From sequence record DRR723986_585: a stretch of DNA of 64,000 nucleotides. The stretch is one strand, 5' to 3'. Below are positions 27,904 through 43,896 of the stretch, piece after piece. Below the pieces are notes generated by a model. The model was not told the DNA's origin, did no database searches, and worked only from the letters and a program-made list of their open reading frames with translations. Both the position numbers and the translations under genes were made by a program. Within the stretch, counting starts at the first letter, position 1; every line of letters begins with the position of its first letter.

Positions 27904-29210
27904 ATATGTGTTTCTAATAGATCTACTTTTACAATTCCGTCTCGATCAATTTCTGATAAACTCACTTCTACAATTTGATTCACCAGGCTCTTGTCGTAAG
28001 GTAGTTTGACCTTCACGTAATTATTAGTGAATCCAAAAATCGTTCCTTCATTTTCTTCTGCTTCAAAAAGAACGGGTTTTGATTTATTGATTTGAGTGGA
28101 GTAGAAGGCTCTTTTCTTTTTTTCTGATAAGATTTGTAGTTGTCTACTTCTTTCCCTTCTGATGTTCACTGGAACGGCATCTGCCATTTTCTTGGCAGTT
28201 GTGTTGGCACGTTCAGAGTAGGTGAATACGTGTAAGTATGAAATGTCTAACTCTTGCAAATAATTAACGGTTTTCATAAACTCTTCTTCGGTCTCACCAG
28301 GAAAACCAACAATAACATCAACACCAATACAGGCGTCAGGCATCAATTCTTTAATTTTTGCAACTCTTTCAGTATAAAGCTCAGTTAGATACTTTCGTCT
28401 CATGGCTTTCAATAACAGGTCAGATCCAGATTGCAAAGGGATATGGAAATGCGGAACAAAGTTTTTTGACTTTGCAACAAATTCAATGATTTCATTGCTC
28501 AACAAATTCGGTTCAATGGATGAAATTCTCCATCTATCTATTCCTTCGATTTCATCCAATTGTTGAATCAATTGGTAAAAGTTTTCCTCTCCTCCTTGTC
28601 CAAAATCTCCAATATTCACTCCTGTCAATACGACTTCTCTTACATCACTTTCTCCTAATTTTTTGGCTTCTAAAACAGTGTTGGCAATTGATGTGTTTCT
28701 ACTCTTACCTCTAGCAAGTGGTATGGTGCAGAAGGTGCAAAAATAATCACAGCCATCTTGAATCTTTAAAAATGATCTGGTTCGATCACCTAAACTGAAA
28801 GAAGGGATAAAATCAGTGGTTTCTTTGATGTTGTTTGATTTAACTTCCGCTATCTCCTTCTTCTCCAACTTTTCGATATGATCAAGAATATTGAATTTTT
28901 CATTAGCACCTAAAACGAGGTCAACTCCAGGAATTGTTGAAATTTCGCCTGGTTTTAATTGTGCATAACAACCGATCATAGTGACAAACGCCTCGGGATT
29001 AATTTTCAATGCCTTTTTTACAATATTTCGGCATTTTTTATCCGCGTTTTCAGTAACCGAACAGGTGTTGATTATAAAGATATCCGGTCGATCAGTAAAA
29101 TCAACCTTTGCAAAACCTTGATTTTCAAAGTTTCTGGCGATTGTAGAAGTTTCTGAGAAATTCAGTTTACAACCAAGTGTATAAAAGGCTACCTTCTTGT
29201 ATTGACTCAT
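27900..29210 (-). CDS. mtaB: tRNA t6A37 methylthiotransferase
   Basis: TLGCKLNFSE, INTCSVT, radical SAM KIQDGCDYFCTFC and C-terminal TRAM region; start at MSQYKK. Confidence 0.93.
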   Translation of the reverse strand: MSQYKKVAFYTLGCKLNFSETSTIARNFENQGFAKVDFTDRPDIFIINTCSVTENADKKCRNIVKKALKINPEAFVTMIGCYAQLKPGEISTIPGVDLVLGANEKFNILDHIEKLEKKEIAEVKSNNIKETTDFIPSFSLGDRTRSFLKIQDGCDYFCTFCTIPLARGKSRNTSIANTVLEAKKLGESDVREVVLTGVNIGDFGQGGEENFYQLIQQLDEIEGIDRWRISSIEPNLLSNEIIEFVAKSKNFVPHFHIPLQSGSDLLLKAMRRKYLTELYTERVAKIKELMPDACIGVDVIVGFPGETEEEFMKTVNYLQELDISYLHVFTYSERANTTAKKMADAVPVNIRRERSRQLQILSEKKKRAFYSTQINKSKPVLFEAEENEGTIFGFTNNYVKVKLPYDKSLVNQIVEVSLSEIDRDGIVKVDLLETHI

Positions 29211-29263
29211 AATGCAAAGATAGAGAAATGAGCTAATTGCACAGAGTATATCGTTCAATAGTT

Positions 29264-29300
29264 AAAAAAAATCCCGTCACGGAATAACCGAGACGGGATT
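29264..29300 (-). terminator. intrinsic terminator after the DUF3276 gene
   Basis: Minus strand AATCCCGTCTCGG-TTATT-CCGTGACGGGA followed by a T-run. Confidence 0.8.
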
Positions 29301-29321
29301 AACTATTGTTTTCAGTTGAAA

Positions 29322-29645
29322 TTACAATTCTTCGAAAGTAACTTCTTCTTTTTCTTCTTGATTTTCTTCTCTAGGCTCTGGTTTCTTGAATTCTCCAGTT
29401 CCCCATAATTCTTTAATCTTGTCTAAAGCCTCATTCATTCCTTCTCCAAACTTGTCAAAATCCTCTTTATAAAGGAAAATTTTGTGTTTTTCATACTCAG
29501 GTCTTCCATCATAGTCACCTGTTCTTTTGCTTTCTGTAATGGTTAAGTACAAATCTTTTCCTCTAGTCGTCTTAACATCAAAAAAATAGGTTCTCTTTCC
29601 AGCTTTTACACGTTTTGAAAAAACTTCATCATTTCTCTCGTTCAT
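29322..29645 (-). CDS. DUF3276 / PUR-like nucleic-acid-binding protein
   Basis: FSKRVKAGKRTYFFDV, YLTITESK and KHKIFLYKEDF motifs. Confidence 0.9.
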   Translation of the reverse strand: MNERNDEVFSKRVKAGKRTYFFDVKTTRGKDLYLTITESKRTGDYDGRPEYEKHKIFLYKEDFDKFGEGMNEALDKIKELWGTGEFKKPEPREENQEEKEEVTFEEL

Positions 29646-29703
29646 CTTTCCCTTTTTAAATTATGGTTACACAAATTTATAATTTCTGATGAAAATCAAA
29701 AAT

Positions 29704-30615
29704 TTAATTCAACTTATTTACTTCTAAAAACTTTATTATTTCTTGAATTGCTGAAGGCTCAAACCAATTGATGTCTTCGTTTTTTCTAAACCATGTCAAC
29801 TGACGTTTCGCATAATGTCTTGAATTTCTTTTGATTAATCGAACAGCTTCTTCGTAATCATGCTTGTTTTCAAAGTAGTCAAAAAACTCTGTATATCCCA
29901 CTGTTTTTAAAGCTTTCTGTTCTTTATGCTTTGTCAAGTTTTTAACTTCATCTTCCAGGCCAGCTTCTAGCATTTCATCTACTCTTGCGTTTATGCGATC
30001 GTATAAGGTTTCCATTTCTGAATGCAGGCCAATCCAAGTGGTGTGAAAGGATCTTTCCTTTTTAGTCTTTGATCTGAAAGAAGAGTAGGGTTTCCCCGTT
30101 ATTTTAAATACTTCAATTGCGCGCATTAATCGTCTTGGATTTTGAATATCTGCTGATTGAAAGTATTCTGGATCAATTTTTTTTACTTCTTCTTGTAATG
30201 ATGAAATACCGTTTTGTTCAAGCTCCTTTTTCAGTATATCCCTTATTGATTCATCTTTAGGGATGTCATCAATTCCATAAACTAAACCATTGATGTATAA
30301 ACCGCTTCCTCCAACTGCGATACAATAATCGTGAGTTTGGTAGATCTTTTCTAGACATGCTAAAGCGTCTTGCTCAAACATCCCTGCTGTGTAAAGATTT
30401 GAAATTGATCGTGAATTGATAAAATGATGCTCGGCTTGAGCTAATTCGTCCGAAGTTGGCTTTGCCGTTCCAATGGACATCTCCTTATAAAACTGTCTTG
30501 AATCGAAGGATAAAATGGGGCAATTAAAATGTTCTGCCAATCGAATGCTCAAGGCCGTTTTTCCTATGGCCGTTGGGCCAGCAATGACGATTAAGTTCTT
30601 TTTTAACTCAGCCAT
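29704..30615 (-). CDS. miaA: tRNA dimethylallyltransferase
   Basis: GPTAIGKT, DSRQ, IGTAKP, GGSGLY and YAKRQLTWF motifs. Confidence 0.96.
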   Translation of the reverse strand: MAELKKNLIVIAGPTAIGKTALSIRLAEHFNCPILSFDSRQFYKEMSIGTAKPTSDELAQAEHHFINSRSISNLYTAGMFEQDALACLEKIYQTHDYCIAVGGSGLYINGLVYGIDDIPKDESIRDILKKELEQNGISSLQEEVKKIDPEYFQSADIQNPRRLMRAIEVFKITGKPYSSFRSKTKKERSFHTTWIGLHSEMETLYDRINARVDEMLEAGLEDEVKNLTKHKEQKALKTVGYTEFFDYFENKHDYEEAVRLIKRNSRHYAKRQLTWFRKNEDINWFEPSAIQEIIKFLEVNKLN

Positions 30616-31268
30616 TCATCAACAAGCTCACGGATGCAACCGTGACCTCCATTTTTTCTAAGTACAATATCAACTTTTGATTTGATTGAAGGAGTAGCGT
30701 CAGCAGGACACGCAGATATATTTACTGCTTCTATTATATCTAAATCGTTGATGTCATCCCCAACAAAAACAGTGTTTTCTAAAGTCAGATTTAATTCATC
30801 TAACCATGCGTTTAAAATACCCAACTTTGGTTCAGAGCCCACGTAAACGTGACTTATTCCTAGTAAATCTGCCCGGTCTTGAACAACTTTTAGTTTTTTG
30901 CCATGTGAAATGATTCCAAAATGGACGCCTTTATTTACCATTGCTTTGATGGCAATTCCGTCTTTGGCATTATATCGCTTAATTTGATCGCCATTTTCAG
31001 TGAAAAACATGCCGCCATCAGTCATTGTGCCATCAACATCTAAAATGATGAATTTCACCTTTGATTTATCAACTTTGTTGAGCTGCTTTAAGTCCTTTAA
31101 CACAATGACATCTAAGGGTAAATTAAAGTATTCGGCAATCCTTACCAGCTCATTTGGAGTTGGGTCCATTATGCGAACTTTGGGAATGTAAATGATATTC
31201 TCAAATTCAGTTACCGAAATTCCTTGCTTTTCACAAAGGTGTAGTATGTTACTATTGTAAATGTTCAT
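30603..31268 (-). CDS. KdsC-family HAD phosphatase with N-terminal XRE/Cro-like helical domain
   Basis: DVDGTMTDG, KDG, GDDIND and GGHGCIRE motifs; first ~60 aa resemble an XRE HTH (..P..ELVRIAEYFNLPLD). Confidence 0.85.
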   Translation of the reverse strand: MNIYNSNILHLCEKQGISVTEFENIIYIPKVRIMDPTPNELVRIAEYFNLPLDVIVLKDLKQLNKVDKSKVKFIILDVDGTMTDGGMFFTENGDQIKRYNAKDGIAIKAMVNKGVHFGIISHGKKLKVVQDRADLLGISHVYVGSEPKLGILNAWLDELNLTLENTVFVGDDINDLDIIEAVNISACPADATPSIKSKVDIVLRKNGGHGCIRELVDEWLS

Positions 31269-31284
31269 TGTTGAATGGAATTAA

Positions 31285-32283
31285 TTATACAATATTCATC
31301 CCAACTGCAGTTGCTACAGGTTGAAGTGTTTTTACCAAAGCTTTAAATTCTTCATGATCTAGCTGTTGAGAGGCATCCGACTTCGCTAATTTTGGAGTAG
31401 GGTGTACTTCAATTAAAAGACCGTCAATCCCCATAGCAATACAAGCTCTAGTCAAATCTGGAACGCCGTAAGCATGTCCCATTGCATGAGATGGATCTAA
31501 TACAACCGGAAGGTTAGTATGTTCTTTCAAATAAGAAACGCCGCAAAGATCTAAAGTAAAACGCGTCTTCGTTTCAAACGTCCTAATTCCACGCTCACAC
31601 AGCACCACATTCTCATTCCCACCAGATAAAACGAATTCAGCACATTGAACAAATTCTTGTAAAGTTGTTCCGAATCCACGTTTAATTAAAACTGGTTTTT
31701 GTGTTTTTGCACAGGCTCTTAAAATTCCTTGATCATACATGGCTTTTGCACCGACTTGAATTACATCTGAATATTCAATGACTTCTTGTACATGCGTAGC
31801 GTCACGAACCTCAGTGATAACTGTTAAGCCGTGCTCTTCGTTCATTTTCTTTAGCAGTTTCAACCCTTCTAATCCAAGTCCTTGAAAACTGTAAGGTGAA
31901 GTTCTTGGTTTATAGCATCCACCTCTTAAAGTTGTTAAATTCAAAGATTTTAAGAGAGCTGAAGATTCCTGAATTTGAGCTTCTGACTCAACTGAACAGG
32001 GACCCGCAATCAATAAGGTGTTTTTAGAATTTCCACCAATCGTAACGTTGCCGATTTTTACGGCTCTTGTTTCATCTAAATACTGTCTTGAAGACAATTG
32101 CATGTCGTTGTCAAAAACGAAGGTTGCTAAAGTTTCATCATTGTATTTAGGATCAAGGTTTTTTTGACCAGATGAAGAAATTAACACAAACTTGTCTGTT
32201 TTCTTAATTAAAAAAGCGTTGTTCTCTTTTGCAATTTGATTCGCTCTTTCAGCTCCTATTCCTTTTTTTAATTCTATTATCAT
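31285..32283 (-). CDS. class I-beta DAH7P synthase-like aldolase
   Basis: IAGPCSVE, KPRTSPYSFQGLG, LCERGIRTF, DPSH, EVHP and SD motifs. Confidence 0.85.
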   Translation of the reverse strand: MIIELKKGIGAERANQIAKENNAFLIKKTDKFVLISSSGQKNLDPKYNDETLATFVFDNDMQLSSRQYLDETRAVKIGNVTIGGNSKNTLLIAGPCSVESEAQIQESSALLKSLNLTTLRGGCYKPRTSPYSFQGLGLEGLKLLKKMNEEHGLTVITEVRDATHVQEVIEYSDVIQVGAKAMYDQGILRACAKTQKPVLIKRGFGTTLQEFVQCAEFVLSGGNENVVLCERGIRTFETKTRFTLDLCGVSYLKEHTNLPVVLDPSHAMGHAYGVPDLTRACIAMGIDGLLIEVHPTPKLAKSDASQQLDHEEFKALVKTLQPVATAVGMNIV

Positions 32284-33293
32284 ATTTCTCCTTTGATCAA
32301 GTTCATGAAGCTAATGCTACCTAAGCCTTGTCCGTTTTCGTTTATTACTGGTAGATACACCACCGTTTTACTTTCTTTTTTAATGAATCTTAAAAGTTGA
32401 TAAACTGTGTATGTTCCTTTTACTGTCAGTGGGTTTTGATTAATGATTTCCTTGACGTCAATATTGTTTAAATTATCAATTGATTTTAGAAATCCTTGAC
32501 GCAAATCTGCGTTGCCAATAATACCTTTGAATGATTGATTTTTATCCAATACCATTACAAAACCAAGCTTGCCGGCATTCATTACTTCCAAAACATTTTT
32601 CATGTTTAACTGGTCATCATAAACCACTGGAGATTCATCCAAATCTCTCATAAAATCTTGTACCAAAAAATGCGACTCAACTTCGTTTAATTTCAAATTC
32701 AACAAAGCCGTATTGATATTAGCTGAATTGAACAGGTATGAGCCAGAAACAGAAGCATAAACTCCCATGTTTCTTAAAATAAAAGATACTTCAGCATTTA
32801 CACCTCCGTCAACATGCACCTTTTTATTAGGATATTTCGCCTGAAAAGCACGAATTTTTCTAAAGTTCGATTTGTCAAATTTTCCCCCAGACTGCCCTGG
32901 AATAGTGGCCATGAATAAAATGAAATCAAAATCTTCAGCATACTGATCAAATACATCAATACTCGTGTCTGAAGTGATCGCCAATCCAAGTTGTCCAGTG
33001 AATTCTTTCGGGATTGCCAATTCTTTATCCTCTAAATCTTCATATTGAAACGTCACATATTCAATATCAAATGTTTCTAATGCAGGATAAAACCTTTTAG
33101 GATGAGATGTGATGATATGCAAATCAATTGGAATAATAGAGTTTTGCTGAATTTTCTCTATATCTGCAAACACATTCAAGTCATCATTGCAATCAACATG
33201 AATCATGTCTACGTGACTATCATTTAAATTGGAAATGGTTGTTTCAATTCCCTGTGTTTCTTTATCTGAATATATTGATGCGGATATTTTCAT
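32280..33293 (-). CDS. ribulose-phosphate 3-epimerase-like domain fused to a CBS pair
   Basis: ISASI, HVD, DLH, MATIPGQSGGKF, VDGG and SGSYLF motifs, then VQDFM...GIIGNADLR...NPLTV...LPVIN CBS pair. Confidence 0.8.
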   Translation of the reverse strand: MKISASIYSDKETQGIETTISNLNDSHVDMIHVDCNDDLNVFADIEKIQQNSIIPIDLHIITSHPKRFYPALETFDIEYVTFQYEDLEDKELAIPKEFTGQLGLAITSDTSIDVFDQYAEDFDFILFMATIPGQSGGKFDKSNFRKIRAFQAKYPNKKVHVDGGVNAEVSFILRNMGVYASVSGSYLFNSANINTALLNLKLNEVESHFLVQDFMRDLDESPVVYDDQLNMKNVLEVMNAGKLGFVMVLDKNQSFKGIIGNADLRQGFLKSIDNLNNIDVKEIINQNPLTVKGTYTVYQLLRFIKKESKTVVYLPVINENGQGLGSISFMNLIKGEI

Positions 33294-33691
33294 GAATCTA
33301 TTGGTACGAAATTTTCATTGCAGATTTCAATTCTAAAATTCAAATCCTTATAAACTTTTGTTTTTAAATCTCTCTCTAATGAACTGATATTATATTTCTG
33401 ATCTTCAGGAATGCTTTGTTTATTGTCTGATACTATCATTTTCATGATAAATCCTGGATTTTCACTACCCATGCTTGAACTTGTAAGTTGAATAGAATGT
33501 GGTTTTTCTTGAATTAAATTATTGGTCTCAAAATAATCCGCAACCGGTTCAACATATTTTGAGCAATCTTCTGTATAGAATATTTCAAGATTCCCTTTGG
33601 TATATTTCTCACCATAAGATGCTTGACAAGAAATCAATAATCCTAAAGGCATCAAACAGAAAAAGAGATATAGTTGTGTAAATTTGCTCAC
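33290..33691 (-). CDS. hypothetical lipoprotein
   Basis: GTG start; lipobox LISC. Confidence 0.6.
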   Translation of the reverse strand: MSKFTQLYLFFCLMPLGLLISCQASYGEKYTKGNLEIFYTEDCSKYVEPVADYFETNNLIQEKPHSIQLTSSSMGSENPGFIMKMIVSDNKQSIPEDQKYNISSLERDLKTKVYKDLNFRIEICNENFVPIDS

Positions 33692-33721
33692 GTATTATTC
33701 AATAGGGTAAAGATAAAACTT

Positions 33722-34561
33722 ATGATTGACTTTAAGGATAAGATTTACATTGGAAGTAATGAACGAAAATCTCTTTATGATTGTACAATTCCTGTCGAAC
33801 CTCATGCTGTAATTGTATTTGTTCATGGTTATAAAGGATATAAAGATTGGGGAGCTTGGAATTTGATGCAAGATAATTTTGTTTCGAAAGGATATGGATT
33901 TGTGAAATTTAATATGTCGCATAATGGTGGAACAGTGGAGGAGAAAATTGATTTTCCTGATTTAAATGCATTTGGAGAGAATCGCTATTCTTATGAAATA
34001 AATGATCTCAATTCTATAATTAATGAAGTTGATCGACTAATGACCTTTGAACTAGAATTGAATTGTCCAATATATGTATTGGGTCACAGTAGAGGAGGGG
34101 GCGTGGCAATTTTAACGGCTATGCACAACGAGAAAATTAAAGGGATCGTTTCTCTTGCCGGAATATCTGATATTCCCTCTCGATTTCCAGAAGGCGATCT
34201 GTTAAAAGAATGGCAAACCGATAAAGTGATGTATGTTGAGAATGGAAGAACCAAACAACAAATGCCGCATTTTATCTCGTTTTATGAGGATTATCTAGAA
34301 TTTCAGTCTGAGTTGAATATTGAAGAAGCTTGCAGAGATTTAAAAGTTCCTTTTTTACAAATTCATGGTGATATGGATTTAGCCGTTTCTATTTCTGAAG
34401 GTCTAGCAATTGCTGATTGGACGGATACAGAAGTGAAAATAATTAAAGGAGCTGAGCACACATTTGGTACTTATCATCCATATGAAAAAAATGAGTTACC
34501 AGAAGAAATGATTGAGGTAATTGAAGCCTGTCTACAATTCTTTAGTAGACTGCCATCTTAA
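33722..34561 (+). CDS. alpha/beta hydrolase
   Basis: HGYKG, GHSRGG, HGDMD and AEHTF motifs. Confidence 0.88.
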   Translation: MIDFKDKIYIGSNERKSLYDCTIPVEPHAVIVFVHGYKGYKDWGAWNLMQDNFVSKGYGFVKFNMSHNGGTVEEKIDFPDLNAFGENRYSYEINDLNSIINEVDRLMTFELELNCPIYVLGHSRGGGVAILTAMHNEKIKGIVSLAGISDIPSRFPEGDLLKEWQTDKVMYVENGRTKQQMPHFISFYEDYLEFQSELNIEEACRDLKVPFLQIHGDMDLAVSISEGLAIADWTDTEVKIIKGAEHTFGTYHPYEKNELPEEMIEVIEACLQFFSRLPS

Positions 34562-36020
34562 CCATCAAGGTCTCAAAATATTTTTTAATTTGAGTATTTG
34601 AACAAGTGTGATTATTGATGATCATTGCGTAGGCTAACTTTTTTCCACTTTTTGAATCAACATATCCAGCATAAGATTTGATTCTAGTCATGGTTCCACT
34701 TTTACCATAAACTCTGCCTGCAGCAGCAGTACCCCTGCACATTCCTGACATAGTACCTCTTTTACCCGCCAGAGCCATACTATTCTTTAGGGCACTTCCT
34801 GTGTTTTGTTTGTGCATAAATGTGAGCATATCCACCAAAAATTTTGCACTAACTGAGTTTGAACGTGATAATCCGCTACCGTCTGTCATATTAAGGCCTG
34901 CCGCTCCAATCTTTCCCGACCAGTACTTTTCACAGGCCAGTGCACCATTATAGGTACTACCGTATCCTGCTCTTTTCACCGAAATTTGACATAAAATATG
35001 TTCAGCAAACAAATTGATACTATTTCTATTTGTGATGTTAATAATGGATAAAAGAGAAGGTGATTTATGAGTGTAAAGAAGATTAAGTTCCGGTTTTTCA
35101 AAAGGCTGTCCCTGAGTCAATTCTCGCATGGTTACTGGGGCATATAAAATGTCAATCCCGTTTTGTTCAAGGATATAATCCAGCTCAATTCCCGCAACGA
35201 GCTCTGGATCAGGAATACTCGCTCTAACCCCAAAGTCTTCCTGACCTTTAGGTATTGAGCCTCTTACAAACCAATCTGTTGACCAAGGAGCACCATATAC
35301 ATATGCATTGTCTTTTTTAGAGTCTGCTGCTTTCACATAATTTCTAATGTTAATTCCAGGGATATATGGACTTGTGCATATGATTGTAGTTGAATCTCCA
35401 GCGTTTGGTCCAGTCTTAAAATGGTAGGTACATAAGTTGTCAAAAATCGTTAGTCCCGCAGGACCAGCTCCATAATAATTACCCATATCTCCCCAGATCC
35501 AACCTGAAGGGGCGCCCTGGTAAGAGTAAATTGAACCGTCTGCAATTACTCTACCTACAACTTTCTTAATGCCTAGAGCAACCAGAGTATCTGCCCACTC
35601 TTGTAAAAAATCAGATTGATGCCCTTCCTTATTAAAATATTTTGAACCAAGTGTTGGATCACCTCCGCCAATGAGATAAATATCTCCATACAAAGTACCG
35701 TTGGTATCAATTTCACCAGAATACATAATTTCGGTTTTAAAACGATAACCTGAGCCAACCATTTGAAGAGCACTGGCTGTCGAAACTAGTTTCATTGTTG
35801 ATGCAGAAGGGATGCTCATATTAGAATTGCAATCCGCAATGACATCTCCGGTGATCATGTTTTTGACATAAAAACTGAAGGCAGAATTTTTCAAAGTCTT
35901 ATAAGTCATCATTTCATCAGCCCTCGACTGAATAGCGTTTTGGGGCTTAGTGTCTTCAGTTTGAGCAGAAACTCTAAAAATTGAAAATCCTAAAAAAATA
36001 CAAAGAAATAAATGCTTCAT
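34542..36020 (-). CDS. dacB: D-alanyl-D-alanine carboxypeptidase/endopeptidase (PBP4, S13)
   Basis: PSASTMK, GGGDP, SIN, DGSGLSR and GKSG motifs. Confidence 0.92.
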   Translation of the reverse strand: MKHLFLCIFLGFSIFRVSAQTEDTKPQNAIQSRADEMMTYKTLKNSAFSFYVKNMITGDVIADCNSNMSIPSASTMKLVSTASALQMVGSGYRFKTEIMYSGEIDTNGTLYGDIYLIGGGDPTLGSKYFNKEGHQSDFLQEWADTLVALGIKKVVGRVIADGSIYSYQGAPSGWIWGDMGNYYGAGPAGLTIFDNLCTYHFKTGPNAGDSTTIICTSPYIPGINIRNYVKAADSKKDNAYVYGAPWSTDWFVRGSIPKGQEDFGVRASIPDPELVAGIELDYILEQNGIDILYAPVTMRELTQGQPFEKPELNLLYTHKSPSLLSIINITNRNSINLFAEHILCQISVKRAGYGSTYNGALACEKYWSGKIGAAGLNMTDGSGLSRSNSVSAKFLVDMLTFMHKQNTGSALKNSMALAGKRGTMSGMCRGTAAAGRVYGKSGTMTRIKSYAGYVDSKSGKKLAYAMIINNHTCSNTQIKKYFETLMVKMAVY

Positions 36021-36074: not shown

Positions 36075-37931
36075 TTGTGCGGGATAATTGGTATATGGGC
36101 AAAAAATAAAGAAGGAGAAAAATCCTTCGACCAATTAGATGCTGCTGTTTTATCAATGAGACACAGAGGTCCTGATGTTCAGAACAGCAAGAGACATGCC
36201 AATGTTGCCTTGGGACATGCCCGTTTATCTATCATTGACACTACTTCCCATGGAAATCAACCCATGGTGGATGCCACGGGAAAGTATGAACTCATCTTCA
36301 ATGGTGAAATATATAATTTTCAAGAATTAAAGTTAGAGTTAATAGATAAGGGAGTTGAATTTCAGTCAAACTCGGATACTGAAGTGCTGTTATATTTGCT
36401 CATAAAAGAGGGCAAAAATGCCGTACATAGGTTAAATGGATTTTTTTCATTCGTATTTTACAATTTAGAAAGAAATGAGGTGATATTTGCCAGAGACTCA
36501 ATGGGCATCAAACCTTTGATTCTGTATGAAGATGGCGACAAAATCATTTTGTGCTCTGAGTTATCTTCTCTTTTCCAGTTTGAGATTGATAAATCCATTG
36601 ATGCGGCAGCCTTGAATCATTATTTGGGCTTAACGTATATTCCTGCAGATCACACGATTTTAGAGCAAGCGTTCAAAATTGCACCGGGCGAAGTAGGAAC
36701 TATAATTGATGGAAGTGTTTCGATAAAGAAATATGCCAAATTACAACGAAATCCCTATATAAAACTCACCTATCCTGACGCAGTTAGTGAGTTAAAAAGC
36801 TTGGTTCAAGAGTCTGTGCGGAAAAGATTAGTGTCTGATGTGTCTTTGGGCTGTTTTTTAAGCGGAGGGGTTGATTCTTCTATCATCTCAGCAGTTGCTA
36901 AGAAGTCAATAAGCGATTTAGAAACGTTTTCGATTGGATTCGATCACCCTCATTTTGATGAAACTTCCTACTCAAGAATGGTGGCTGAACATATAGGGTC
37001 AAAGCATCATGAATTTATACTTTCTAAAGCTGATTTTGAGGATGAGTTTGAGAATTTTTTGGATTGTATAGATGAGCCTTTTGCTGATTCATCAGCCTTT
37101 GCTTCTTACTTTTTAGCTAAAAAAACTCGCAATCATGTTACCGTGGCTCTGAGTGGGGATGGAGCAGATGAATTGTTTGCAGGCTATAACAAACACAGGG
37201 CCTTGTTGCGATCTACTAAAACAAGTAAACGAGATAAAGTATTGATCAATTTGGCATCAAAGGTATTGAAGCCTTCAGAAGTTAGTAGATCAAGTTCTTT
37301 TGGAGATTTTAATAGGAAGATTCAGAAAATGAACAGTGGTTTAAAATTAGATATTGAATCGCGCTATTGGCATTGGTGCCACTTTACGTCTATTGAAGAT
37401 GTAGTTAACGTTCTGAAAAGCGAACATTATAGAGAGATTAATTGGGAAGGATACGAAGTGCGAGATGTGAGTGATTCACTTATTGCCGATCAACAGTATG
37501 TGCTTCCAAATGACATGTTGAAGAAAGTGGACTTAACGAGTATGGCAAATTCTCTTGAAGTAAGAACTCCATTTTTGGATCGATCAATAGTTGATTTTGC
37601 CAATTCATTACCTCTAGATTTTAAACTCGACAAGAAAACTTCTAAAAAAATCTTGAAACATGCCTTTGAAGATGATCTGCCTGAAGAAATTTTGTATCGA
37701 AAGAAAAGAGGATTTGAAATTCCGATTCAACTTTGGTTGGGAGATAAAATTGAATCCATGTTGAATTCTGAGATTTTTTCAGAAGAATTCATAGAGGAGC
37801 AGGGCATATTTAAATATGACGGCATAGCAGATTTAATAAAAATAGGTCGTTCTAAGAAGTTTGGAGATAAAATTTATTTACTCTGGTCATTGATTGTTTT
37901 TCAATCGTGGTGGAAAAAATACATGGTCTAA
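36075..37931 (+). CDS. asnB: glutamine-dependent amidotransferase (asparagine synthase family), probably glycan-modifying
   Basis: N-terminal CGI, HRGPD, LSGGVDSS, SGDGADELFAGY and EVRTPFLD motifs; located in the EPS cluster. Confidence 0.9.
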   Translation: MCGIIGIWAKNKEGEKSFDQLDAAVLSMRHRGPDVQNSKRHANVALGHARLSIIDTTSHGNQPMVDATGKYELIFNGEIYNFQELKLELIDKGVEFQSNSDTEVLLYLLIKEGKNAVHRLNGFFSFVFYNLERNEVIFARDSMGIKPLILYEDGDKIILCSELSSLFQFEIDKSIDAAALNHYLGLTYIPADHTILEQAFKIAPGEVGTIIDGSVSIKKYAKLQRNPYIKLTYPDAVSELKSLVQESVRKRLVSDVSLGCFLSGGVDSSIISAVAKKSISDLETFSIGFDHPHFDETSYSRMVAEHIGSKHHEFILSKADFEDEFENFLDCIDEPFADSSAFASYFLAKKTRNHVTVALSGDGADELFAGYNKHRALLRSTKTSKRDKVLINLASKVLKPSEVSRSSSFGDFNRKIQKMNSGLKLDIESRYWHWCHFTSIEDVVNVLKSEHYREINWEGYEVRDVSDSLIADQQYVLPNDMLKKVDLTSMANSLEVRTPFLDRSIVDFANSLPLDFKLDKKTSKKILKHAFEDDLPEEILYRKKRGFEIPIQLWLGDKIESMLNSEIFSEEFIEEQGIFKYDGIADLIKIGRSKKFGDKIYLLWSLIVFQSWWKKYMV

Positions 37932-39116
37932 ATGAAGATTAGAGTTTTAAGAATTATCAATAGATTCAATTTAGGTGGGCCAACCTATAACGCCACTTAT
38001 CTTTCGGCTTATTTGTCTGATCAATTTGAAACTAAGTTGATTGGAGGTAAACACGAAAAACATGAAGGCGGCTCTAGTTTTATTCCAGAAAGTCATGGGG
38101 TAACGGTTGAATTTATTGATGAATTACAACGAGAAATTAGCCCTGCAAAAGACGCTAAAGCTGTAAAAAAAATTAGACAAATCATTCGGGAATTTCAGCC
38201 GCATATCGTGCATACACATGCTTCTAAATCAGGATTTATTGGTCGTTTAGCAGCTTCGAAAGAAAAGGTGCCCGTAATTGTTCATACCTTTCATGGTCAT
38301 GTGTTCCATTCATACTTCAATAAAGTTAAAACCAACTTATATAAGCAGATTGAAAAGCAGATGGCTAAAAAATCTGATGCGATAATTGTTATCTCCAAAG
38401 AACAACACAAAGAACTGGTCCATGAACTTAGTGTGGTGCCTGAAGAGAAGGCTCATATTGTCAAGTTAGGATTTGATTTAAGCCGTTTTCAAGAAAATTT
38501 GGTTTCAAAAAAAGAGTCGTTTAGACAAAAATATGAATTGGATTCGGACGAGATAGTTGTTGGAATAATCGGGCGTTTAACAGCGATTAAGAATCATGAT
38601 CTTTTCATTGAAGCTGCGAACAGGGCTTCGCAAATGACTGATAAAAAAGTGAAGTTCTTAATCATTGGAGACGGCGAAGAGCGTGCAAGACTTGAGCAAT
38701 TGGTTCAAGACAAAAAACAATTGAATCCAAAGCTTGAAATCTTGTTCACTTCTTGGATAAAAGAAATTGATTGGGCACTTGCAGGATTGGATGTTGTGGC
38801 CTTATCAAGTTTTAATGAAGGTACTCCAGTGAGTTTGATTGAGGCCCAAGCAGCAGGAGTTCCTGTGTTAACAACAAACGTTGGTGGCGTTGTTGACGTT
38901 GTAAATGATAATGAAACGGGATTTATTGTTCCCAAAAATGATCTTGATAAGTTTACGGATAAACTGAATGTTTTGATTAATTCGAAAGAAAAACGTCAAA
39001 ATATGTCACAAAATGGTTGGAATCACGTAAAGAATGAATTCAGTTATACGCGTCTGTGTTCAGATGTTGAAAGACTGTATTTGGAATTACTGAAAAAGAA
39101 GAATATAATAGAATGA
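37932..39116 (+). CDS. GT4 glycosyltransferase
   Basis: HTFHGH and EGTPVSLIEA motifs. Confidence 0.9.
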   Translation: MKIRVLRIINRFNLGGPTYNATYLSAYLSDQFETKLIGGKHEKHEGGSSFIPESHGVTVEFIDELQREISPAKDAKAVKKIRQIIREFQPHIVHTHASKSGFIGRLAASKEKVPVIVHTFHGHVFHSYFNKVKTNLYKQIEKQMAKKSDAIIVISKEQHKELVHELSVVPEEKAHIVKLGFDLSRFQENLVSKKESFRQKYELDSDEIVVGIIGRLTAIKNHDLFIEAANRASQMTDKKVKFLIIGDGEERARLEQLVQDKKQLNPKLEILFTSWIKEIDWALAGLDVVALSSFNEGTPVSLIEAQAAGVPVLTTNVGGVVDVVNDNETGFIVPKNDLDKFTDKLNVLINSKEKRQNMSQNGWNHVKNEFSYTRLCSDVERLYLELLKKKNIIE

Positions 39117-39892
39117 GAGAAAGTGTGAAAATATTACTGGGCCTAGGACTTATAATAGCGCTTCATAGTTGTGGTGTAAATAGTAATTTATTGTTGAAAA
39201 CTGACAAGGATTATGAATTTGCAGACATTGATACCCTCAATGCTACTAAAGATGATTATAAAATTGACCGTAATGATATCTTGCAATTGCGATTTTTCAC
39301 TAATGATGGGATAAAAATACTAGAGTTAACAACTTCGAATACAACACCTGGACAAGCACAAGTATTGAATCAAACCAACTCAATTACTTATGTCATTCAA
39401 AATGATTCAATGGTCAACTTACCTATCATTGGAGAAGTTAATTTGGTTGGAAAGAGTATACGTGAAGCAGAAAGTTTTCTTGAAAATCAATATGAAGGAC
39501 AATATGTGAATCCGTTTGTTCAGTTGTCGGTAACAAATAGAAGAGTTATCGTGTTTCCTGGAAATGGGGGAGAAGCAAGTGTTTTGTATTTAGCAAACAA
39601 CAATGTAACCTTATTAGAAGCTATAGCACTAGCTGGTGGAATTACTGAAAGAGGGCGCGCAAAAAAAATTAAGTTAATGAGAAAGAATGATGATGGTAAA
39701 CGAGAAGTTTACAAAATTGACCTTTCTAAAATAGAGGGACTTGAGTATACAGATATTATTGTACAAGCCAATGACTACATTTATATTGAACCTGTTCCAG
39801 AAATTGGAAGAGAAGTTTTAAAAGAAGTAACTCCAATTGTATCACTTATTTCAAGTGCGGCAATTGTAATTTCTGTGATTAGTAAACTATAA
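39113..39892 (+). CDS. wza: polysaccharide export lipoprotein (Wza/OPX)
   Basis: Lipobox LHSC; LPIIGEV and TLLEAIALAGG (SLBB) motifs. Confidence 0.88.
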   Translation: MRESVKILLGLGLIIALHSCGVNSNLLLKTDKDYEFADIDTLNATKDDYKIDRNDILQLRFFTNDGIKILELTTSNTTPGQAQVLNQTNSITYVIQNDSMVNLPIIGEVNLVGKSIREAESFLENQYEGQYVNPFVQLSVTNRRVIVFPGNGGEASVLYLANNNVTLLEAIALAGGITERGRAKKIKLMRKNDDGKREVYKIDLSKIEGLEYTDIIVQANDYIYIEPVPEIGREVLKEVTPIVSLISSAAIVISVISKL

Positions 39893-39895
39893 ATA

Positions 39896-42268
39896 TTGGA
39901 TAATAACAATCATAGTAAGTTCTCTCAGAGTCCAAAAATCAATAAGGACTTCGATTTAAATCTATTAAAAACAGTTTTAAAAAGGAATCGCTTTATCCCA
40001 GTTATTCTACTTGGAATTTCTTTATCTATAAGTTTTGTTTACTTAAGATATACAAAACCAGTATATGAATCAGCTGCTGTTATCCAAAGATCCTCTCAAG
40101 ATGAGGGTAAGAGAATTTTAGATATCGAAGGTTTTGAGAAAGAAAATGAGCTTTCTGAAGACGTTGAATTACTTAAGTCTACCTTTTTATTAGAAAAAGC
40201 TTTAAGGAATTTGAATTTAGAAGTGTCTTATTTTTCTGAAGGCGAAATACTGACAGAAGAAAAATACTTGCACTCGTCATATCACGTTACTTTATTAGAA
40301 TTGAAAGATAGTTCTTTAATAGGGAAGCCAATTTTTGTAACAAACAAGAAGGATAAAATTGAATTGTCATTTGAAATTAAGGGAAAACAGGAAATTGTGG
40401 AGATTTTACCTGACACTCCTATTAATAATGATTATTTCAGATTGATTTTTAAAATAAATGATTCAGATAAATTTAATTTAAGTTCAGTTGAAAACAACTT
40501 GTTTTTTAAGTTTAATAATTATTCAGTATTAACAAATCAGTTGCACTCAAGTCTTAGTGTATTTGCATTAAATCCAGAAGCCAATACTATTCAAGTTTCT
40601 TTTAAATCTAATAATCAACGGCTTAGTAAGGATATCGTATCATCTCTTATCAATACTTTTTTCCAGTACGATTTAGAAAAGAAAAGGCAATCTTCTGCGA
40701 GTGTACTTGATTTTATTGATTCACAGTTAGATACTGTATTTCTCCAGTTAAAAGAATCAGAAACAGCCATTCAATCCTTTAAAGACAGCAACGCAGTAAG
40801 TGATCCGCAATATGTTACATCTCAAATTTTAGAACGAAGCAGTGAGTTACAAAATCAGTTGTTGGAGATTGATTTTGAATTAGAATTGATTCAAGCTGTT
40901 GAAGAATCAGTTCAGCTAAGTGATAGAATTGAAATTTATAAGGTAATTCCTGCAGTTACGGGTACTAATTATGAAAAATTGTTAATCGGGGAGTTAGAAA
41001 AGTTGCACGAATTATTAGTGCAGAAAGAAGATTTATCTTACAGCGTTACTGAGTCAAACGAAAAACTAAAAAAAGTTGACAGACAAATTAAAACACAAAA
41101 CGATAACATTTTTAGAGTGTTGTTGACAGTGAAAAATCAGCTCAAATTCAAGAAGAAAAGTGTACAAGATCGAATTTATCAAGTTGAGAGTGAACTATAT
41201 GGTATCCCTGAAAAGGAAATGGAGCTAAGTAGGTTGAATAGAATGTTCAATTTGAACGAGAAATATTATACATTGCTAATAGAAAAGAAAACTCAGTATG
41301 CCATATCCAAGGCAGGGTTTACCATGGACAACATGGTTTTACAGGCACCTTCTGATGCCGTGAAAATTTCTCCAAACGGTAATCTTGTTTACGGTATTGC
41401 GATCATTTTTACAGTACTATTGAGTCTATTAATTCTAATGATTCGATATATTACTTTTAATGATATTCATGAACCCGAAGAATTAAAAAGACTAATTCCA
41501 AGTAGCGTAGGATTTCTGGGAATAATTCCTAAAGTAGAAACTTCAGAAAAGAACTCAACCCTAGTGGTTCATACTAGTCCAAAGTCTGCATTGGCGGAGA
41601 GTTATAGGCATATACGTTCAAATTTGCAATTTATTCTTAAGGAAGACCAATCGAATTTGATTGCGGTTTCATCATCTATTTCAGGTGAAGGTAAGACTTT
41701 TGTAGCCGTGAATTTAGCCGGTATTATCGCCATGTCTTCAAAGAAAGTTTTAGTAGTAGATTTGGATTTACGAAAACCTAAAGTTCATCTTGCCTTTAAA
41801 GCTGAAAATCGAAATGGGATGAGCTCGATTCTTGCCAATAATGATGATTGGAAAAATTGCGTTCATAAAAGTGAACTTGAAAATTTAGATTTCATCACAG
41901 CAGGTCCAATTCCTCCTAACCCGTCTGAGCTAATAATAAGCAAGGCTTTTGATTTATTTCTTGAGTCAGTGAAAAAAGATTATGATTACGTGATAATTGA
42001 TAATCCTCCAGTTGGAATAGTTTCAGATGGTATTGCTATTTTGAATAAAGCCGATTGCCCGATCTATGTGTTTAGAGCGAATTATTCTAAAAGGTACTTT
42101 GCTGAAAGATTGACAGAACTTGTAGAAACGAACAAAGTATCTAAGCTATTTGTCACGTTAAATGCACAAGAAATTAATAAGCTTGGCTACGGTTACGGTT
42201 ATGGATATGGAGGTTATTATTCTGATGAAAATCTCCAAAAGAAAAAATGGCAATTCTGGAAAAAGTAA
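39896..42268 (+). CDS. wzc: polysaccharide co-polymerase / BY tyrosine kinase
   Basis: Two TM segments, Walker A SGEGKT, DLDLRKP, GPIPPNP and C-terminal GYGYGYGYGGYY cluster. Confidence 0.93.
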   Translation: MDNNNHSKFSQSPKINKDFDLNLLKTVLKRNRFIPVILLGISLSISFVYLRYTKPVYESAAVIQRSSQDEGKRILDIEGFEKENELSEDVELLKSTFLLEKALRNLNLEVSYFSEGEILTEEKYLHSSYHVTLLELKDSSLIGKPIFVTNKKDKIELSFEIKGKQEIVEILPDTPINNDYFRLIFKINDSDKFNLSSVENNLFFKFNNYSVLTNQLHSSLSVFALNPEANTIQVSFKSNNQRLSKDIVSSLINTFFQYDLEKKRQSSASVLDFIDSQLDTVFLQLKESETAIQSFKDSNAVSDPQYVTSQILERSSELQNQLLEIDFELELIQAVEESVQLSDRIEIYKVIPAVTGTNYEKLLIGELEKLHELLVQKEDLSYSVTESNEKLKKVDRQIKTQNDNIFRVLLTVKNQLKFKKKSVQDRIYQVESELYGIPEKEMELSRLNRMFNLNEKYYTLLIEKKTQYAISKAGFTMDNMVLQAPSDAVKISPNGNLVYGIAIIFTVLLSLLILMIRYITFNDIHEPEELKRLIPSSVGFLGIIPKVETSEKNSTLVVHTSPKSALAESYRHIRSNLQFILKEDQSNLIAVSSSISGEGKTFVAVNLAGIIAMSSKKVLVVDLDLRKPKVHLAFKAENRNGMSSILANNDDWKNCVHKSELENLDFITAGPIPPNPSELIISKAFDLFLESVKKDYDYVIIDNPPVGIVSDGIAILNKADCPIYVFRANYSKRYFAERLTELVETNKVSKLFVTLNAQEINKLGYGYGYGYGGYYSDENLQKKKWQFWKK

Positions 42269-42810
42269 TGGAAGTTAAAAAGTTTCATATAAAAGGTCTT
42301 GCAGAGTTTAAACCACGAGTATTTAATGATGATCGGGGTTATTTTTTTGAATCTTTCAATCTGGCCTTTTTTAACAAAAATATTAGTGACTTAAAATTTG
42401 TCCAAGACAATCAAAGTATGTCAAAAAAAGGAGTTTTAAGGGGATTGCACTTTCAAAAACCACCTTTTGAACAAGGTAAATTGGTAAGGGTAATCACTGG
42501 CTCTGCTCTTGATGTAGCTGTGGATATAAGAAAAGCTTCACCAACCTATGGACAACATGTTTCAGTGATATTATCTTCTGAAGCGAATAATGTTTTTTGG
42601 ATTCCACCGGGTTTTGCACATGGTTTTTTGTCGCTAGAGGATCAAACAATTTTCTCTTATAAATGCACCAATTTTTATGATTTTGAATCTGAAGATGCCC
42701 TAAAATGGAACGATAAAGATTTGAAAATAGATTGGGGAGTTATAGATCCAATAGTTTCTGAAAAAGATCAAGAAGCGCAAGAGTTCGAAAATTATTCTTC
42801 TCCTTTTTAA
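42268..42810 (+). CDS. rfbC: dTDP-4-dehydrorhamnose 3,5-epimerase
   Basis: DDRGYFFE, VLRGLHFQ and GFAHGF motifs; TAATG overlap with wzc. Confidence 0.93.
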   Translation: MEVKKFHIKGLAEFKPRVFNDDRGYFFESFNLAFFNKNISDLKFVQDNQSMSKKGVLRGLHFQKPPFEQGKLVRVITGSALDVAVDIRKASPTYGQHVSVILSSEANNVFWIPPGFAHGFLSLEDQTIFSYKCTNFYDFESEDALKWNDKDLKIDWGVIDPIVSEKDQEAQEFENYSSPF

Positions 42811-42813
42811 GAC

Positions 42814-43896
42814 GTGAAAGAGAGTCTCGAATCAATATTAAATCTAATTGGATTTTTCGGAGGAGCACTGCTGCTTTCGCTAATGATTAATTCCTTTTTG
42901 TTGTCTTTTGCGAAAAACCTTGGAACTCGAAATTCAGCAAAAATGACTATTCGTTGGAGTCAAGAAGCAAAACCGTCATTAGGTGGAATTAGTTTTTATA
43001 TCTGTTTTCTAATTGGATTTATGTTATATGCCATAATTTTTGGCGAAGCTGATGTTTTTAGAAATAAAAATCTCCTTGGATTATTTTTCAGCATAAATGT
43101 TGCTTTTTTACTGGGTCTTTCAGATGATGCTTATGACACTAAACCAATGATTAAGCTTGGAAGCCAAATTCTTTGCGGAGTAATTTTAATTGCTTCTGAG
43201 AGTCACATCCTATTGTTTGATCAAGATTGGTTAAACTATTCTTTTACGATTCTTTGGGTTGTTGGTATCATGAATTCAATTAACATGCTAGACAACATGG
43301 ACTCTATTACGTCTACCACCTCTATATTCATTATTCTAACCATTCTCGGAATATCATTGCCTTTTACATTGGTAAATAATGTAGACTTGTTTTTGTTAAT
43401 CACGATTCTTGGCGCACTTTTCGGATTTCTTAGATTTAACTGGAATCCAGCAAAGATGTTCATGGGAGATACTGGTTCACAGTTCTTAGGGATGTTTTTA
43501 GCTTATTTTTCGATTAAGTTTTTATGGAATTCAGGAGTAGATTCTGGTGAATACTCAATTTTTTCAAATTTGTCTTTAGTATTAATAGCTTTCTCAACTC
43601 CGATCATAGATACGACTTTTGTTACGATCAGACGAATTAAAAAAGGGCAATCTCCTATGATTGGCGGAAGAGATCATACGACACATACTTTGTCTTATAG
43701 AGGACTTTCAGACAAACAAATAGGACTTGTATTTATAGTGTTGGGAATTATCTCTTCTTTGCTTGCCTATAATATCGCCAACTTCATTCCTCATGGATCA
43801 TTTGCACTTATTTTAATTTGGTTTTATGTGATTCTCATGCTGTTAATATTTTTCAGTCTAGCTAAAAAATCAAATAAGTCTGAAAAGCTGAAATAA
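42814..43896 (+). CDS. undecaprenyl-phosphate HexNAc-1-phosphate transferase (WecA/MraY family)
   Basis: GLSDD, NSINMLDNMD, FMGDTGS and DHTTH motifs. Confidence 0.88.
   Translation: MKESLESILNLIGFFGGALLLSLMINSFLLSFAKNLGTRNSAKMTIRWSQEAKPSLGGISFYICFLIGFMLYAIIFGEADVFRNKNLLGLFFSINVAFLLGLSDDAYDTKPMIKLGSQILCGVILIASESHILLFDQDWLNYSFTILWVVGIMNSINMLDNMDSITSTTSIFIILTILGISLPFTLVNNVDLFLLITILGALFGFLRFNWNPAKMFMGDTGSQFLGMFLAYFSIKFLWNSGVDSGEYSIFSNLSLVLIAFSTPIIDTTFVTIRRIKKGQSPMIGGRDHTTHTLSYRGLSDKQIGLVFIVLGIISSLLAYNIANFIPHGSFALILIWFYVILMLLIFFSLAKKSNKSEKLK

Follow-up and report, generated by a model that had tools for sequence, protein, structure and literature searches.

A three-gene module with an Rpe-type barrel and a DAH7PS-type aldolase as a candidate replacement for KdsD and KdsA in Kdo synthesis

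Introduction

Three adjacent genes on the minus strand of a 64,000-nucleotide stretch of sequence record DRR723986_585 (hereafter the window) encode a barrel of the ribulose-phosphate 3-epimerase (RPE) type joined to a pair of CBS domains (gene 1, Rpe-CBS), an aldolase resembling type I-beta synthases of 3-deoxy-D-arabinoheptulosonate 7-phosphate (DAH7PS; gene 2) and a phosphatase of the KdsC/YrbI family (gene 3) (Table 1). The same logic and gene order, a CBS-bearing sugar-phosphate enzyme, a DAHP_synth_1 aldolase and a KdsC-family phosphatase, are found in the canonical KdsD-KdsA-KdsC set of E. coli, which serves the synthesis of Kdo (3-deoxy-D-manno-octulosonate). Kdo anchors lipopolysaccharide (LPS); its synthesis is treated as near-universal and essential in Gram-negative envelope biogenesis, and KdsA and KdsD have been studied as antibiotic targets. 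Compared with that pathway, the module has an Rpe-type barrel where KdsD has its catalytic SIS domain, and its aldolase is an offshoot of the I-beta DAH7PS enzymes, with a KPRT motif and an N-terminal extension, rather than a KdsA. Here we argue from genome comparison that the module is likely to be a non-orthologous replacement of KdsD and KdsA, equipped with a KdsC-type phosphatase of its own, that makes Kdo for LPS.

The three genes and their families

The tight linkage described in a sequence-only reading of this DNA (an ATGA overlap, then a 16-nt gap) is exactly what the open reading frames (ORFs) display: the stop of gene 1 and the start of gene 2 share ATGA (...GAAATATGATAATA...), 16 nt lie between the stop of the aldolase gene and the ATG of the phosphatase gene, and miaA (29704-30615) overlaps gene 3 by 13 nt.

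Table 1. The module, its protein parts and the ORF upstream of it (positions in the window)
Feature	Position	Strand	Remark
Gene 1, Rpe-type barrel + KdsD-type CBS pair	32280-33293	-	337 aa ORF
Barrel part, ~residues 1-200 of gene 1	32694-33293	-	RPE metal and acid-base residues present
CBS pair, ~residues 208-337 of gene 1	32283-32672	-	type found at the C-terminus of KdsD/KpsF/GutQ
Gene 2, type I-beta DAH7PS-like aldolase with KPRT	31285-32283	-	332 aa ORF
N-terminal extension of the aldolase, ~65 residues	32089-32283	-	covered by full-length DAH7PS model
Gene 3, KdsC/YrbI-family HAD phosphatase	30603-31268	-	221 aa ORF
N-terminal extension of the phosphatase, first 70 residues	31059-31268	-	sub-threshold HTH_3/HTH_19, E 0.019-0.042
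ORF upstream of gene 1, 133 aa	33290-33691	-	4-nt overlap with gene 1; module membership doubtful

Protein families were assigned by comparing Pfam and NCBIfam profile scores with the cut-offs of the models. Gene 1 matches PF00834 (Ribul_P_3_epim) over the full profile (81.8 bits), in addition to its CBS match, and reaches 80.5 on the rpe model TIGR01163, below the cut-off of 212.6 and hence not at equivalog level. No SIS domain was matched in gene 1 by Pfam or NCBIfam, and only the CBS part (positions 157-267) of the KdsD model TIGR00393 is matched (E 4.3e-10). The closest solved relative of residues 196-337, over the whole pair, is 4o9k (E 7.2e-10), which is the CBS pair of an arabinose-5-phosphate isomerase; 3fna comes second. 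An AlphaFold model built with 11 sequences consists of an eight-stranded barrel and a CBS pair (predicted local distance difference test, pLDDT, 85.3; predicted template-modelling score, pTM, 0.83), for which Foldseek returns RPEs as the top folds of the barrel (2fli, 7sbj, 1rpx and 3ovq; TM 0.71-0.77, normalised to the target) and, for the C-terminal part, 4o9k and 3k2v, both of them CBS pairs from arabinose-5-phosphate isomerases. That the CBS pair is carried by an Rpe barrel instead of a SIS domain, as had been proposed, is thus well founded. The pair is probably a regulatory domain; structures of KdsD CBS pairs have reportedly been solved with CMP-Kdo, the cytidine monophosphate-activated sugar. 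Public records call the gene 1 protein 'ribulose-phosphate 3-epimerase', 'CBS domain-containing protein' or 'hypothetical protein'.

The barrel has the fold and the His-Asp-His-Asp set of the RPEs (2fli, 3ovq, 1rpx), at an identity of 18-23%. His32, Asp34, His59 and Asp162 align with human RPE (3ovp) and with the canonical Rpe of related genomes and are invariant across 11 sequences; going by the roles of their counterparts in the human and S. pyogenes enzymes, we take them to be the metal ligands and the acid-base pair. The DGG and SGS phosphate-binding motifs are preserved as well. Rpe-CBS differs from the epimerases, beyond its fused CBS pair, in the loop after Asp34 (MDGxFVPNISFG in canonical Rpe), which is 6 residues shorter, in two of the three Met positions (Met to Asn or Lys, Met to Ile), in an altered 'LNP' motif and in the phosphate loop, where PGFGGQ has become PGxSGG.

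Gene 2 scores 232.6 bits on DAHP_synth_1 and lies above the cut-offs of two DAH7PS models (NF006421, 363.9 against 335; TIGR01361, 322.6 against 267.75) and far below that of the KdsA model TIGR01362 (127.9 against 314). With KPRT at residues 125-128, this confirms the DAH7PS-type aldolase that had been proposed for this position, and the NCBIfam models would name it '3-deoxy-7-phosphoheptulonate synthase'. Solved DAH7PS enzymes from A. pernix (1vs1), T. maritima (1rzm/1vr6) and P. furiosus (1zco) are matched with E-values from 5.5e-80 (1vs1) to 1.9e-72. The N-terminal extension, present in 11 of 11 cluster aldolases, falls within the alignment to NF006421, which pairs residues 1-330 with profile positions 1-336 of 338; it probably corresponds to the regulatory domain, of ferredoxin-like fold, in T. 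maritima DAH7PS, the corresponding model PF18152 having been seen only on another protein, P0127.

Conservation in the active site is selective. The metal ligands Cys96, His266, Glu292 and Asp303 are preserved, as are Arg120, Lys125, Lys201 and Arg231, which bind phosphoenolpyruvate (PEP) according to the roles given in PMC6362186. In the same source, the Arg of the G(A/S)R motif is a completely conserved PEP-binding residue of DAH7PS, and the Arg and Thr of KPRT are assigned to erythrose-4-phosphate. Gene 2 has Lys180 in place of the G(A/S)R arginine. All 11 cluster aldolases read GAK(A/S)MYD(Q/H)G here, and library representatives outside the module clade read G(A/S/T)R, mostly GARNMQN; after the metal-binding His, the clade has HAMG(H/Y)AY (HAIGFAY in one copy) where others have HxxG(R/K)R and variants. 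The module aldolase therefore shares with type I-beta DAH7PS its metal ligands, KPRT and an N-terminal region as in the T. maritima-type model, and differs from it in Lys180, in the GAKxMYD and HAMG(H/Y)AY motifs, in forming a separate clade (see below) and in standing in a Kdo-type rather than an aromatic context.

Gene 3 exceeds the cut-off of the KdsC/YrbI subfamily model TIGR01670 (141 against 106.95) and falls short of the KdsC equivalog NF007019 (133.7 against 208), so that the KdsC-type phosphatase of the sequence-only reading stands at the level of the subfamily. On the Bacteroides model for the phosphatase of the nonulosonic acid KDN (KDN-9-phosphate phosphatase, NF058599) it scores about as on the KdsC models, 128.8, below the cut-off of 180; gammaproteobacterial module phosphatases have this as their best-scoring model (147.7-152.7), also below that cut-off. 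In the KDN pathway the synthase is of the NeuB type and is not an aldolase of the DAHP_synth_1 family. Besides scoring below the equivalog level, the phosphatase differs from canonical KdsC by the 70-residue N-terminal extension that it carries in the window's family; this may be a DNA-binding or regulatory add-on and is absent from the copies (158-189 aa) of Gammaproteobacteria and of another Flavobacteriales family, f3. We also noted in the protein library a natural fusion of 521 aa (P0125) in which a signature-bearing aldolase is joined to a HAD/KdsC-like phosphatase.

The triplet is conserved and reaches Gammaproteobacteria

Eighty related loci were drawn from named genome records, at least 566 such loci being present in the scan. 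The aldolase gene directly follows Rpe-CBS in 77 of the 80, the other three ending at a contig edge, and the phosphatase gene comes next in 66 of these 77. Five more are cut by a contig end, and the remaining six have at least 736 bases without a phosphatase; they include Putridiphycobacter, Crocinitomix and other Crocinitomicaceae records. Crocinitomix catalasitica ATCC 23190, Putridiphycobacter roseus SM1701 and Wandonia haliotis JCM 16083 are cultured strains that carry the module. This arrangement is far beyond chance, and the conservation of the triplet, on which the sequence-only reading had made its proposal depend, is clear.

Two gammaproteobacterial loci (L077 and L086) have the order rpoN-lptB-lptA-lptC-kdsC-kdsB, with a heptosyltransferase gene before kdsB in L077, then divergently oriented Rpe-CBS, aldolase and phosphatase genes, then a calcium/sodium antiporter gene and mlaA. 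The E. coli order being yrbG-kdsD-kdsC-lptC-lptA-lptB-rpoN, the module sits in the place of kdsD. The linkage to kdsB that the sequence-only reading had raised as a question was therefore found in Gammaproteobacteria, where the module stands between yrbG and kdsB-kdsC-lptCAB-rpoN, and not in five Flavobacteriales loci. Each of the two gammaproteobacterial loci has two KdsC paralogues 2-4 kb apart (L077:3355-3906 and 8162-8644; L086:4544-5077 and 8028-8597).

A maximum-likelihood tree of the aldolases was built from 83 rows (quick search, supports from the SH-like approximate likelihood-ratio test, SH-aLRT, only). Its sampling took in 50 of the 94 single-domain library representatives that were eligible, and the outgroup consisted of three KdsA. 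Within I-beta DAH7PS, every one of the 19 module-linked aldolases falls into a single clade together with 7 representatives that bear the signature (SH-aLRT 99, stem 0.6). The gammaproteobacterial aldolases branch from within the Flavobacteriales copies as a tight subclade (99), a placement that indicates transfer from Bacteroidota. The module aldolase of L073, a record titled as a metagenome-assembled genome of Henriciella pelagia, nests inside the Crocinitomicaceae copies; this contig may be mis-binned and not alphaproteobacterial.

A deep-branching variant occurs on a metagenome contig (L144:594-3964, also L145), where an Rpe-like protein with CBS domains and a signature aldolase (P0132) accompany a PF02348 cytidylyltransferase fused to a KdsC-like domain and an RraA-like protein. 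By its gene content this variant shows the module family in what appears to be the service of a CMP-activated ulosonic acid, which in L144 and L145 may be a different one.

Module and canonical kdsA and kdsD exclude each other

If the module replaces KdsD and KdsA, the two gene sets should be complementary. We scored 151 Flavobacteriales genomes for KdsA (TIGR01362, E<=1e-50) and for KdsD/SIS (TIGR00393, E<=1e-30), sampling by species representatives. Full-length Rpe-CBS is present in 35 genomes: 28 of 28 in the window's family, whose named relatives are Crocinitomicaceae, while three further families contribute 4 of 9, 2 of 27 and 1 of 6 genomes. Canonical KdsA was found in 112 of the 151 genomes and KdsD, either as SIS+CBS or as a SIS-only form of ~200 aa adjoining kdsA, in 102; the window's family has neither in any of its 28 genomes, most of which are 99-100% complete. 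In none of the 151 does the module occur together with KdsA or KdsD, and four have neither KdsA nor the module. The SIS-only isomerases illustrate that the KdsD step was already variable in this order; unlike the module, they are still SIS enzymes and always accompany canonical KdsA. A single-domain arabinose-5-phosphate isomerase has reportedly been characterised in Bacteroides fragilis.

The swap is visible within a single genus, g52, which contains both states. One member (G089) has kdsB-kdsD-kdsA. At the syntenic site of two others (G113 and G155), where neighbouring proteins are 58-85% and KdsB 63-67% identical, kdsB stands without kdsD and kdsA, and the module lies elsewhere in the genome. 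Since the genes of the module are adjacent, as those of the canonical kdsD-kdsA pair often are, each set can be gained or lost as a unit, and no special intermediate is needed to explain why Rpe-CBS is so strictly paired with its aldolase.

Outside Flavobacteriales the pattern recurs. Among 301 Bacteroidota genomes the module was found in 4, two of them in another Bacteroidia family, and neither KdsA nor a SIS-type KdsD was detected in these two genomes, both 100% complete. In a gammaproteobacterial order represented by 61 genomes (genome quality not given), 20 have the module, 38 KdsA, none both and 3 neither. Five of these module genomes have no PF00793 gene beyond the module aldolase and one other, which scores ~325-333 bits in a frame of 355-368 aa and is taken for the usual gammaproteobacterial DAH7PS; SIS-type KdsD was found in none of the five. 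Rpe-CBS thus never occurs alongside KdsD in 151 + 5 + 2 genomes, and in 5 of 5 module genomes tested the best match to the KdsA model is the module aldolase itself. Canonical kdsA and kdsD, whose presence elsewhere in the genome had been an evident question for the sequence-only reading, are therefore both absent from module holders in two phyla. The complementarity is repeated in at least four lineages; as the genomes compared are in part related and so not independent of one another, the numbers are to be read as a recurring pattern and not as a statistic.

The same counts bear on the simplest alternative, that the three genes are chance neighbours (a paralogue of rpe, a second DAH7PS of the shikimate pathway and some unconnected phosphatase) and that Kdo is made by canonical genes that escaped detection. 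The aldolase does pass the NCBIfam DAH7PS cut-offs, and the genome nearest to the window, G001, is incomplete (93%). However, KdsA is missing from all 28 genomes of the family, with their high completeness, and from the two complete genomes elsewhere; the complementarity is perfect in two phyla, the triplet is conserved, the near-invariant GARNxQN of DAH7PS is altered in the module aldolase, and a separate DAH7PS-chorismate mutase lies among aro genes (see below). We regard this explanation as very improbable indeed.

The shikimate pathway and the pentose epimerase have enzymes of their own

G001 shares 58% of sampled words with the window. Its Rpe-CBS protein is identical to a database copy (P0001), and of the 337 residues translated from the window 1 is different in that copy. 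Its sole other DAHP_synth_1 gene encodes a DAH7PS-chorismate mutase fusion, split over two contig ends, with prephenate dehydratase before it and EPSP synthase after it, so that the shikimate pathway has its own enzyme. Across 61 genomes of the window's family, matches to PF00793 score in just two ranges, ~211-250 bits for the module type and ~111-141 bits for a second class, which includes the G001 fusion. As had been claimed from the sequence, no aro gene lies near the module, none being seen among the window's ORFs of at least 100 aa. The module aldolase is not the enzyme of the shikimate pathway; what it tracks is the absence of kdsA. In four genomes of the window's family (G022, G026, G049 and G025; loci L021-L024) there is in addition a third, unlinked T. 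maritima-like DAH7PS paralogue that retains GARN and the N-terminal domain.

A canonical rpe (~240-270 bits) accompanies the Rpe-CBS gene in 59 of the 61 family genomes, and the idea that Rpe-CBS is the housekeeping rpe was dropped for this reason; no second rpe was found in G001, which is attributable to the incompleteness of that genome (93%). The KdsD model finds in G001 only CBS pieces and the SIS domain of a 618-aa ORF of the size of glucosamine-6-phosphate synthase. One outcome that would have spoken against the sequence-only reading, namely that these are the genome's only rpe and DAH7PS and that their clustering is not conserved, does not describe what is seen: there is a separate DAH7PS-chorismate mutase, relatives have a canonical rpe, and the triplet is maintained.

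These data also weigh on a second alternative, in which the aldolase does make Kdo-8-phosphate and Rpe-CBS is a regulated ribulose-5-phosphate/xylulose-5-phosphate epimerase that feeds the pathway, or a sensor, arabinose-5-phosphate being supplied by a side activity of some other isomerase. The intact RPE catalytic tetrad would suit such a role, as would the Flavobacteriales genomes with KdsA and neither KdsD nor Rpe-CBS, which imply that the order has another source of arabinose-5-phosphate. Yet a canonical rpe (~260 bits) is already there in 59 of 61 relatives, Rpe-CBS never stands alongside KdsD, the motifs lining the substrate differ from Rpe throughout (loop deletion, Met changes, phosphate loop), and the CBS pair fused to the barrel is of the KdsD type. 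We therefore judge this division of labour unlikely.

kdsB and waaA are retained and KdsB is unchanged

In 147 of the 151 Flavobacteriales genomes, 34 of the 35 module holders among them, kdsB scores above its cut-off; G001 has it (224.4 bits, cut-off 155.2) together with waaA. Tests for waaA were positive in 4 of 5 module holders and then in 3 of 4 gammaproteobacterial module holders, the misses being gammaproteobacterial genomes of unstated quality. A comparison of 16 KdsB sequences of the module group with 19 of the canonical group found no sign of re-specialisation: of the 59 columns that are at least 90% conserved in the canonical group, 51 are identical in the module group, and a single column (V to I) discriminates between them, with V retained in three gammaproteobacterial module holders. 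KdsB model scores of the two groups overlap fully.

The unchanged KdsB is set against a third alternative, in which the LPS of module holders is not built on Kdo at all and the module makes a 7-carbon homologue of it. Here the Rpe-like enzyme would epimerise erythrose-4-phosphate at C2 to D-threose-4-phosphate, a reaction that would fit the family, since the reactive carbon of RPE lies two carbons from the phosphorylated one; the KPRT aldolase would join threose-4-phosphate, which DAH7PS enzymes accept, to PEP to give 3-deoxy-D-lyxo-heptulosonate-7-phosphate, and once freed by the phosphatase the sugar would be installed on lipid A by KdsB and WaaA in place of Kdo. Several observations agree with this route: the aldolase retains KPRT and aligns almost without gaps with four-carbon-specific DAH7PS; both epimerase-type Asp residues are in the barrel; an aldolase is in every case, and a phosphatase in most, supplied by the module itself, also where a canonical KdsC is its neighbour, as would be expected of an intermediate that canonical KdsA and KdsC refuse; and the deep-branching variant has a divergent cytidylyltransferase of its own. 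On the other side, KdsB has no group-specific change (one conservative column of 59) and equal model scores, and the swap has occurred within a genus and between phyla, into genomes with ordinary waaA, heptosyltransferase and lpt genes and a canonical KdsC; a change of core sugar would require many enzymes to accept the new sugar at once. The 7-carbon route thus seems to us a rather unlikely one.

Surroundings of the module in the window

The 133-aa ORF upstream of gene 1 (Table 1) has no family match in Pfam or NCBIfam, its only match being a sub-threshold one to the lipoprotein-like start of PF02402, and it occurs upstream in 23 of 80 related loci, every one a close relative. At a distance of 3 kb from the module, the plus strand carries a gene cluster for making and exporting a polysaccharide (36075-43896), with an asparagine-synthase-type amidotransferase, a glycosyltransferase of family 4 (GT4), a WecA-like GT family 4 enzyme, a Wza-like exporter, a 790-aa Wzc-like protein and RmlC; no link between this cluster and the module was seen in related loci. 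A sigma-70 scan of 29000-34800 gave 21 promoter-like sites where 21.3 are expected, with a consensus that is not that of Bacteroidota, and the 5 terminator-like sites of the same interval (2.6 expected) are uninformative. A contig from a metatranscriptome library (2141 nt, 58 differences) covers 30619-32759 and with it both gene junctions, a weak hint that shows neither transcription nor a single transcript.

Discussion

We rate the module as the logic of the Kdo pathway carried out with two non-orthologous enzymes. Of the two outcomes that the sequence-only reading had left side by side, a non-orthologous route to Kdo is now strongly supported by the exclusion of kdsA and kdsD in two phyla, by the retention of kdsB and waaA and by the position of the module in place of kdsD in Gammaproteobacteria; a route to some other 3-deoxy-2-ulosonic acid is disfavoured by the unchanged KdsB and by the ordinary LPS genes around the module, and we consider it improbable. 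Kdo is favoured because KdsB is unchanged and because the swap took place within a genus and across phyla into ordinary LPS gene sets, and on these grounds we hold, with fairly good confidence, that Kdo is the product.

A plausible sequence of reactions can be proposed for such a route. The Rpe-type barrel would form D-arabinose-5-phosphate through the metal-stabilised enediolate chemistry of its family, either from ribulose-5-phosphate by isomerisation or from ribose-5-phosphate by 2-epimerisation, so that Rpe-CBS would stand in for KdsD, with feedback control by the end product conferred by the KdsD-type CBS pair. The DAH7PS-derived aldolase would then join arabinose-5-phosphate and PEP into Kdo-8-phosphate; that it stands in for KdsA we infer from its complementarity with kdsA. 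A five-carbon sugar is a plausible substrate for such an enzyme, the DAH7PS of P. furiosus being said to accept five-carbon sugars. The product of gene 3 would dephosphorylate what the aldolase makes and free Kdo, which ordinary KdsB and WaaA would activate and transfer.

A number of observations weigh against a replacement of KdsD and KdsA. The sequence of the aldolase suggests an enzyme of erythrose-4-phosphate: KPRT is present, two DAH7PS cut-offs are passed, the alignment with A. pernix DAH7PS is gapless save for a 2-residue difference close to the barrel's N-terminus, and gene 2 has neither KANRS nor the longer loop, both of which KdsA uses for arabinose-5-phosphate. The two Asp residues with which epimerases work on opposite faces are both kept in the Rpe-CBS barrel, and we know of no precedent for the formation of arabinose-5-phosphate in an RPE fold. 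Some ten genomes of one Flavobacteriales family (f3, for example G077, G106, G146, G166 and G174 of genus g43) have KdsA with neither KdsD nor Rpe-CBS; there must therefore be another source of arabinose-5-phosphate in the order, seemingly a third one in Flavobacteriales, which weakens the equation of Rpe-CBS with KdsD. In the gammaproteobacterial loci canonical KdsC is retained (227.4 and 215.9, cut-off 208) beside the module phosphatase, so that either one of the two is redundant or their substrates differ. No LPS genes neighbour the module in Flavobacteriales, where five loci from four families have it among unrelated housekeeping genes. Finally, all of the evidence is comparative, the nearest genome is 93% complete, and the quality of the gammaproteobacterial genomes is not given.

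In a full-text literature search, which leaves most subscription journals outside its scope, we found no description of the module, of an Rpe-type enzyme for arabinose-5-phosphate or of a DAH7PS-type Kdo-8-phosphate synthase, nor, within the same scope, any paper on missing kdsA or kdsD in Flavobacteriales.

Should the module indeed make Kdo, a whole bacterial family would have replaced KdsA and KdsD by unrelated or re-purposed enzymes, as would scattered Flavobacteriales, another lineage of Bacteroidia and a third of the sampled genomes of a gammaproteobacterial order. Rpe-CBS would then represent a new class of enzyme for the formation of arabinose-5-phosphate, an Rpe barrel under a KdsD-type regulatory domain, and the aldolase a natural Kdo-8-phosphate synthase that retains KPRT, the textbook discriminator of DAH7PS from KdsA. 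The annotation of both could be corrected accordingly, closing the apparent gap in the Kdo pathway of module genomes. If instead the 7-carbon route were true, the module would mark the first case in nature of Kdo giving way to a shorter sugar, and could be a route to sugars of the 3-deoxy-lyxo-heptulosaric acid (Dha) type. With Kdo as the product, these genomes would offer a dated and repeated case in which horizontal transfer has exchanged one operon of an essential pathway for another.

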